From the IMG/VR virus record IMGVR_UViG_2548876935_000005: 7,216 bases of DNA. One strand, 5' to 3'. The stretch comes from a virus. Its lineage: Duplodnaviria; Heunggongvirae; Uroviricota; Caudoviricetes. How positions within the stretch are numbered: the first letter of the stretch is position 1; each line of letters opens with the position of its first letter. Both the position numbers and the translations under genes were made by a program. Positions 28 to 79 of this stretch are shown one piece after another. Below the pieces are notes generated by a model that had not been told where the DNA came from, did no database searches, and saw nothing but the letters and a program-made list of their open reading frames with translations.

Positions 28-79
28 GTGTTCAACACTTGACGTGTTTAACACCTGGGCTTAAATTGGTGTTCAACAC
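28..79 (+). promoter_or_regulatory. sigma70-like promoter (-35 TTGACG 39-44, 17-bp spacer, -10 TAAATT 62-67) overlapped by three 11-bp palindromic operator-like sites GTGTT(C/T)AACAC at 28-38, 44-54 and 69-79
   Basis: Read directly: three near-identical perfect palindromes flank and fill the spacer of a -35/-10 pair, upstream of the first + strand ORF. The arrangement is typical of a repressor-controlled early promoter. Confidence 0.5.

Follow-up and report, generated by a model that had tools for sequence, protein, structure and literature searches.

In the immI region of phage P22, two ribbon-helix-helix (RHH) repressors, Mnt and Arc, act at the divergent promoters Pant and Pmnt. For Gram-negative phage-inducible chromosomal islands (PICIs), which spread virulence, defence and resistance genes, the published control is by activation. 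AlpA, encoded upstream, is the master activator of these islands (PMC6092414, PMC11773190); it is necessary for induction and, in EcCICFT073, sufficient (PMC6092414). The founding paper on Gram-negative PICIs treats AlpA as an activator and calls the global repressor "unclear" (PMC6092414). What, then, could hold such an island silent? Here we analyze a stretch of 7,216 nucleotides (IMG/VR record IMGVR_UViG_2548876935_000005; "the window" is this whole stretch), at whose left end three 11-bp palindromes lie at a promoter. We assign the window, from its sequence, to an EcCIMP1-like PICI at tRNA-Thr because the gene layout and the insertion site of its genomic locus are those published for EcCIMP1, an island that has phage Kapi1 as its helper (PMC11773190). 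It is for EcCIMP1, another sequence than the window, that induction, excision and packaging by Kapi1 were published, and that paper makes no mention of operators or of a small divergent gene (PMC11773190). Our data suggest that the palindromes are operators of a small repressor of the YlcI/YnfO family (DUF3950), encoded divergently just to the left of the window. In the searchable literature (subscription-only papers not covered), no function is described for YlcI/YnfO, and the searchable PICI literature, EcCICFT073 included and with the same limit, holds no description of this module or its sites.

The window contains GTGTTCAACAC at 28-38 and again at 69-79, and GTGTTTAACAC at 44-54. All three are perfect odd-centred 5-1-5 palindromes of the form GTGTT-N-AACAC. 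They are the only matches to GTGTTNAACAC in the window, against an expectation of 0.02, and three matches were reached in 0 of 200 dinucleotide-preserving shuffles of the window. Allowing two mismatches to GTGTTNAACAC added matches in the window at background level only. The motif was not found, even with one mismatch, in the rest of the 23-kb genomic locus of Escherichia coli strain N1420 (L001, in which window base 1 is base 8001), the region upstream of alpA included. A promoter scan independently recovered the promoter that a preliminary description of this DNA had proposed, TTGACG and TAAATT separated by 17 nt, which matches 9 of 12 consensus positions (P_right). The sites and the rightward promoter are as follows.

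28 to 38, no strand assigned: candidate operator O1, GTGTTCAACAC, directly 5' of the rightward -35; it includes the -35-like TTGAAC of a putative leftward promoter.
39 to 44, plus strand: P_right -35, TTGACG, from the promoter scan and its conserved offset.
44 to 54, no strand assigned: candidate operator O2, GTGTTTAACAC, which fills the -35/-10 spacer of P_right.
62 to 67, plus strand: P_right -10, TAAATT, from the promoter scan.
69 to 79, no strand assigned: candidate operator O3, GTGTTCAACAC, over the probable P_right start at about 74-76.

Relative to this start, which we place near 74-76 from the hexamers, O1 extends from about -47 to -37, O2 from -31 to -21, and O3 from -6 to +5, positions typical of steric repression. 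The three 11-mers thus stand where the preliminary description had put them, at the head of an operon of an Icd-like gene, small ORFs and a primase gene, the small-ORF/replication operon that it had proposed. Its account of how they overlap the promoter stands for the spacer, filled by O2, and for the start, covered by O3, but O1 only abuts the -35, with which O2 shares a single base, the last one.

The gene that we propose as the source of the repressor encodes 59 amino acids and is transcribed leftward (L001 7978 to 7799); its start codon lies 23 nt to the left of window base 1. Because this ylcI-like gene starts just left of the window, window positions 1-177 form a divergent intergenic region. 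The protein, MATKAVNAKSQTVAARVPHEVMNNVEAVKMPGESTGQFVTAALKREVEYRQRRKAKEQE, matches the NCBIfam model NF041551 (YlcI/YnfO, DUF3950) over residues 9-50 at 59.7 bits (cutoff, 30), and RefSeq annotates the gene in L001 as YlcI/YnfO family. It has no Pfam match, and its PHROG matches are to families of unknown function. Its sequence follows the RHH pattern of a strand, helix A, a G-x-S/T turn and helix B. In the strand, hydrophobic residues at 13, 15 and 17 alternate with polar ones at 12 and 14, and the residues of the inter-helix turn, G32-E33-S34-T35, vary little or not at all. The sequence thus shows the alternating strand, the predicted base-contacting residues and the G-x-S/T/N turn of RHH proteins. 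We predicted the structure of a database homologue 97% identical to the L001 protein, using an alignment of 36 homologues. The AlphaFold model (pLDDT, 84) is extended at 12-18 and helical at 19-28 and 35-58, the beta-alpha-alpha order of RHH proteins, so that an RHH-like fold is predicted. One homologue carries the UniRef label "CopG-like ribbon-helix-helix." A weak profile alignment to Arc places T12, A14 and R16 of the YlcI-like protein opposite Arc Q9, N11 and R13; hhalign gave no significant similarity to either Arc or Mnt (probability below 5%). Sequence searches of the PDB with the single protein and with a profile returned chance matches only (DNA polymerase beta and designed cages), and a Foldseek search of the PDB with the model returned nothing significant.

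A link between this protein and the palindromes comes from related loci. The ylcI-like/Icd-like module is present in 1,348 of 5,426 complete E. coli genomes at 68-100% identity, and single E. coli genomes hold up to six such modules. We fetched 6 diverged E. coli loci, 31 loci from one-genome-per-species contigs and 80 from viral contigs, and analyzed the 108 with an extractable ylcI-like gene and upstream region. These come from E. coli, Edwardsiella, Pectobacterium, Kosakonia, Serratia, Xenorhabdus, Proteus and other Enterobacterales. Read from the sequences, the general operator form is GTG-N5-CAC, each class being a perfect or 4-of-5 palindrome. The operator cores fall into about 10 classes, each paired with one variant of residues 11-16 of the YlcI-like protein, the predicted strand.

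Strand QT[VLI]AAR: core GTGTT(C/T)AACAC; E. coli, Edwardsiella, Pectobacterium and Kosakonia, with proteins just about 60-67% identical overall.
Strand [KR]KLEAR: core GTGGCTGACAC; E. coli, Pectobacterium and many Xenorhabdus.
Strand Q[AS]LK[AS]R: core GTGG(G/A)CCACAC; several loci.
Strand QK[LV]Q[AT]R: core GTGGANTCCAC; several loci.
Strand QSVTAR: core GTGTAAGACAC; second copy inverted.
Strand QMTTVR: core GTGTATTTCAC; second copy inverted.
Strand KRFDVR or KKIDVR: core GTGTC(C/T)GACAC; single loci.
Strand QKTSVR: core GTGTCC..CAC; a single locus.

In two more classes, an altered N-terminal arm (MTRD.. or MSDN..) pairs with outer triplets (C/A)TG...CAG (CTG...CAG with MTRD..), and the GGA.TCC core that goes with QK[LV]QAR is retained with the strand QKIQAR. 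All two to four sites of a locus change core in concert. Within class 1, invariant columns make up 28/33 in the sites versus 18/69 elsewhere (Fisher P = 2.7e-8); within class 2, the counts are 31/33 versus 33/69 (P = 2.5e-6). Variability of the strand is highest at residues 12 and 14, the predicted DNA-facing positions, while K9, S10 and R16 are invariant.

The promoter framework persists as the cores change. In nearly all of the 108 loci, and in every operator class, TTGA(C/A/G)(G/A) stands equally far from the ylcI-like start, TTGAC(G) being at 63-68 from the start codon, and aligned sequences read by eye show TAnnnT-type hexamers 17-18 nt after the -35 in other classes. In almost every related locus a GTG-N5-CAC 11-mer begins on the last base of the -35 (CTG/ATG...CAG in a few classes). 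Most loci have a second copy of the class-specific 11-mer 27-31 nt downstream of the first -35 base (in locus L002 the distance is about 38 nt); this O3-equivalent copy is direct or inverted relative to O2, depending on the locus class. A further 11-mer, at about 24 from the ylcI-like start codon, overlaps a conserved AGTATA. The window's class usually has a site 5' of the -35 (O1), and in 25 distinct class-1 intergenic sequences O1 is invariant or nearly so. Many other classes lack O1 and have a site over the leftward -10/+1 instead. In the E. coli version of the window's class the site at the leftward -10 has decayed; Kosakonia-type loci and some loci from viral contigs keep both. The prototype island, EcCICFT073, has the same module, its small genes bearing the late-added tags C_RS30120 and C_RS30125, with operators GTGGGCCACAC, and the module is also found in the island of IHE3034, an island with capsid genes of its own. 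The repressor-operator layout suggested in the preliminary description is thus supported on two counts: hexamers and site positions are conserved in the 108 loci while the spacers drift, and the sites change together with an island-encoded protein predicted to bind DNA. Its further suggestion, that this is likely the master switch of the island, goes beyond these data; in published work the master activator is AlpA (PMC6092414, PMC11773190).

Taken together, these data support the reading that the three palindromes are operators of the divergent, homodimeric RHH repressor of the YlcI/YnfO family, to which we give a probability of roughly three in four. One dimer would occupy each 11-bp GTG-N5-CAC dyad, with the invariant Arg16 and the N-terminal arm reading the outer GTG/CAC and the outward-facing variable residues 12 and 14 reading the inner bases. 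With 9 of 12 consensus positions, P_right should be active unless blocked. Filling of O1, O2 and O3 would cover about -47 to +5 of this near-consensus sigma-70 promoter and exclude RNA polymerase, leaving the Icd-like/small-ORF/primase operon silent while the island is integrated.

Could another protein of the island read the sites? We also considered that AlpA, or a different island protein with a helix-turn-helix (HTH) such as PerC or the HTH protein at 7059, binds the palindromes and activates the promoter or loads RNA polymerase there. AlpA is needed to induce related islands and activates island genes (PMC6092414, PMC11773190), Pseudomonas aeruginosa AlpA binds an element inside a promoter (PMC9371919), and the centre of O1, near -42, is a classic activator position. 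O2 and O3, however, lie inside the core promoter, where bound proteins repress, and the motif is absent upstream of the autoactivated alpA and elsewhere in the island. AlpA type and operator type are also uncoupled: loci L006 and L007 share the same operator and YlcI-like protein and have unrelated AlpA proteins and integrases, and L002 and L007 have near-identical AlpA proteins and different operators, so AlpA was rejected as the determinant of specificity. The HTH protein at 7059, which the preliminary description had named as a candidate regulator, is not the likely one, as it resembles a terminase small subunit (Rpp-type) and its gene is cut by an IS66-family insertion; PerC was likewise considered as the binding protein and rejected. 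On this evidence a role for AlpA or another HTH protein at the palindromes is very unlikely. Two further island products were also set aside. The Icd-like protein is 87-99% identical across five operator classes, versus 49-64% for residues 1-45 of the YlcI-like protein, and the second leftward ORF of L001 (66 amino acids) is absent from several loci.

A factor from outside the island is another candidate: a host or helper-phage protein might recognize the sites, with the helper switching the promoter directly. Helper dependence of induction is established for these islands (PMC11773190, PMC6092414), and the outer GTG...CAC common to nearly all classes makes a shared factor conceivable. The cores, however, differ among islands of the same species, which tend to use the same kinds of helpers, and they follow the island's own RHH variant across genera. 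Searches of 50,697 phage records with the protein (tblastn) and with the module (blastn) found no homologue, and hence gave no evidence of a helper phage with the same switch. We regard an outside factor as decidedly unlikely.

Repression by the YlcI-like protein may extend to its own gene, a role not raised in the preliminary description; for this gene we read a putative leftward promoter from the sequence.

35 to 30, minus strand: putative leftward -35, TTGAAC, inside O1.
8 to 13, minus strand: putative leftward -10, CATACT, for the ylcI-like gene.

The spacer of this putative promoter is 16 nt in the window and 17 nt in L001, and the promoter, with just 8 of 12 consensus positions matched, is not in the promoter scan output. 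The equivalent hexamer TATACT (AGTATA on the plus strand) is conserved from one operator class to another, at a constant distance from the ylcI-like ATG, and transcription would start about 20 nt before that ATG. The YlcI-like protein likely autoregulates the leftward promoter, because O1 contains the leftward -35 and other classes have an operator over the leftward -10/+1. Bound at O1, over its own -35, the protein would limit its own synthesis; in most relatives, the site over the leftward -10/+1 would take over this role of O1. Between the putative leftward -10 and O1, the window has a run of 7 A (18-24) and L001 one of 8 A (8018-8025), a difference in length that may tune repressor expression. 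One could go further and see in the YlcI-like protein mainly an autoregulator, or an antitoxin-like partner, of the leftward operon, with the rightward operon left to AlpA-driven read-through. Two of the three sites, however, sit on the rightward core promoter, 25-70 bp from the leftward promoter, and the second leftward ORF is not universal and has no toxin signature, which makes a purely leftward role unlikely.

The repeats might also act as RNA, either as small hairpins (GGUG-loop-CACC) or through complementary divergent transcripts, in the manner of P4 cI and P1 c4, immunity RNAs that also precede icd-type genes. The operon begins with a structured leader, and the features that bear on this are the following.

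79 to 177, plus strand: 5' leader of the operon, with hairpins at 79-94, at 109-139 followed by TCTAACCAC, and at 152-168 just 5' of the ribosome-binding site.
178 to 380, plus strand: Icd-like gene (cell-division-inhibitor-like; NCBIfam NF033153, 71.7 bits), first gene of P_right.
1578 to 3383, plus strand: primase gene, 3' of the Icd-like gene and the small ORFs.

Among 19 aligned leaders drawn from several genera, compensatory changes occur in 11 of the 14 consensus pairs; the first hairpin (79-94) is variable, the hairpin at 109-139 has two parts, and TCTAACCAC is invariant. The conserved structure of this downstream leader speaks for an RNA role, as do a weak terminator-like hairpin scored by the scan at 68-80 and, in relatives, the complementarity between a site in the ylcI-like 5' untranslated region and the one where the rightward transcript begins. 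Against it, O1 and O2 lie upstream of the probable start and would not be transcribed from P_right, the start itself falls inside O3, and site orientation is direct or inverted according to class. An Rfam scan of the whole window, with E values up to 1, gave no match and so no C4, IsrK or other known RNA, and an RNA would leave the co-variation with protein residues unexplained. That the repeats work as RNA is accordingly the least probable of the accounts weighed here. For the leader itself, attenuation is one possible function; another is that of an immunity-type RNA such as those 5' of icd in P1.

How would an island held by the YlcI-like repressor be induced? Our guess is that helper-triggered, AlpA-dependent transcription would continue rightward across the convergent ylcI-like gene as far as the operon and so interfere with synthesis of the repressor. 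Alternatively or additionally, induction could depend on AlpA-dependent expression of an antirepressor gene of AntA/BRO-N/Rha type, such as many islands have downstream of alpA. In P. aeruginosa, AlpA acts as a processive antiterminator (PMC7969949, PMC9371919). In L001 the alpA unit is convergent with the ylcI-like gene, and a terminator scan found strong terminators between them on the minus strand only; with no strong terminator on the plus strand to part the alpA-antA unit from the ylcI-like gene, the layout is compatible with convergent read-through. The terminator-like hairpins on the minus strand are at L001 7763-7789, directly after the ylcI-like stop, and, stronger, at 7105-7130, after the second leftward ORF. 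Past alpA in EcCICFT073, an unannotated frame (L122 5767-6000) has an N-terminus like that of the L001 AntA (…GRGFVRPEKQNLQNF…) and then diverges; it looks like a degraded antirepressor gene.

Several points weigh against the operator reading. AlpA alone induces EcCICFT073 (PMC6092414), so AlpA would somehow have to override the repressor. Several islands, EcCICFT073 included, lack the antirepressor gene or have it in degraded form, and an antirepressor is for that reason not a universal answer to induction. No clear cooperative geometry emerges from the O2-O3 offset, which in most loci is 22-25 bp but in L002 is 35 bp. Binding, repression and the transcription start are all deduced from sequence. 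Lastly, the repressor gene adjoins the sites, and linkage alone gives some co-variation. Linkage as the full account is disfavoured because separated sites switch in concert in ten classes and because site positions stay fixed within a class across genera, which does not by itself prove contact.

A broader proposal can be put forward only tentatively, at somewhat less than even odds: that Gram-negative PICIs, among them EcCICFT073 and the capsid-carrying islands, have in the YlcI/YnfO-type RHH protein their missing maintenance repressor; that a simple code of strand and operator gives them about 10 or more immunity specificities; and that AlpA-dependent induction overrides or inactivates the repressor by read-through or through the adjacent antirepressor. 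If true, this would overturn the activator-only view of the islands and give the uncharacterized YlcI/YnfO (DUF3950) family its first function. The module offers a testable answer to what keeps an island silent and a handle on how the helper wakes it. The map from two or three strand residues to an operator core would amount to a natural recognition code, which could explain how co-resident islands avoid cross-repression and could be used in the design of small orthogonal repressors. E. coli loci of different operator classes have the same C-terminal tail, RRQRRKAKEQE, in the YlcI-like protein, whereas its N-terminal 45 residues diverge. The conserved DNA coding for this tail (L001 7799-7830) and the conserved leader to the right of O3 resemble borders at which recombination could exchange a specificity cassette. 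The next leftward ORF (66 amino acids; L001 7541-7741) contains RKRQRRK and ends in KEQE; it has no Pfam match and no toxin signature.

The surroundings of the switch are those of an island of the EcCIMP1/EcCICFT073 type. Bases 1-7162 of the window match many E. coli chromosomes at 99.8-99.9% identity. The left part of L001 holds proA, tRNA-Thr, an integrase gene, a hypothetical gene, an AlpA-family HTH gene, an AntA/AntB antirepressor gene and two small leftward genes. Rightward there follow the Icd-like gene, small ORFs, and genes for the primase, ProQ/FinO, PerC and a TerS-like protein, among others, and then a MarR/Vat island, as published for EcCIMP1 (PMC11773190); this gene order is the Gram-negative PICI layout, and as in such islands there are no lysis genes and no complete set of virion genes. 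In homologous loci in RefSeq, the Icd-like gene starts at the ATG equivalent to window position 178, after a GAGG ribosome-binding site; the Icd-like protein has no Pfam match. The RefSeq coding sequence in L001 is longer, at 134 amino acids versus 67 elsewhere (7977-8381, or about -23 to 381 of the window); it puts the operators "inside" a gene and overlaps the ylcI-like start. This long version is probably an annotation artefact, and the ORF at 39-380 in a mechanical ORF list appears to be an over-extension of the same gene. In an AT-rich segment 3' of the primase gene (window 3400-3750), repeats similar to TGGTAGACAG occur many times, in either orientation; the iteron origin of the island is presumably here. 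At the right end, the last ~55 bases (7163-7216) match the end of an IS66-family (ISEc8-like) element, and all close relatives align to 7162 only. The HTH ORF from 7059, which is 175 amino acids long in L001, has terminase-small-subunit and excisionase-type PHROG matches; the IS66-family insertion truncates this terminase-small-subunit-like gene in the window, and the island copy may be defective in redirecting packaging.

Comparison with known systems places the proposed switch closest in form to the Mnt/Arc switch of P22, with which it shares a small RHH repressor encoded divergently from the operon that it would control and dyad operators inside the core promoter that would serve both divergent promoters. 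Residues 12, 14 and 16 of the YlcI-like protein correspond to Gln9, Asn11 and Arg13 of Arc, the residues by which Arc contacts DNA. Unlike P22, where one operator of 17-21 bp is bound by a tetramer, the island has three dispersed 11-bp sites, probably for one dimer each; its operon carries satellite replication genes, whereas that of P22 encodes the antirepressor; and there are many specificity classes among the islands. In the immI region of P1 (c4 RNA, icd, ant), too, a promoter under repressor control and a structured leader precede an icd-type gene that comes first in the operon. The operator in P1 is a site for C1 and is asymmetric. The island leader, however, shows no Rfam match to C4 at E values up to 1, and replication genes, not ant, follow. 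The promoter-blocking arrangement of the sites resembles that of CopG (pMV158), but the sites of CopG and of omega (pSM19035) are contiguous and bound cooperatively, whereas those of the island are 16-35 bp apart.

Within the family, K-12 YlcI (prophage DLP12) and YnfO (Qin), both DUF3950, belong to the same NCBIfam family and show the same beta-alpha-alpha pattern. Unlike the island gene, K-12 ylcI lies at the end of a lambdoid prophage, beside cos and nohD and without GTG-N5-CAC repeats nearby; considered as a second example, it was uninformative on operators. It is divergent from nohD with a lambda-type cos between them (L120 6252-6840) and encodes an RHH-like pattern, a position that hints at a DNA-binding role near cos in lambdoid phages.

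Among satellites, Stl (Rpr) of the staphylococcal pathogenicity islands (SaPIs) and other Gram-positive PICIs, with its divergent stl-str promoters, is likewise encoded by a divergent repressor gene between the integrase side and the replication module, and, like Stl, the YlcI-like repressor would keep its island silent until a helper phage arrives (PMC6092414). Stl, however, is a larger HTH repressor with a helper-binding domain, whereas the YlcI-like protein is a 59-residue RHH protein with a conserved basic tail only, and it is AlpA that is the documented inducer in the Gram-negative islands. In kind, then, the proposed switch does not depart from other RHH repressor-operator switches; the novelty lies in the protein family and in the setting in which it would act.
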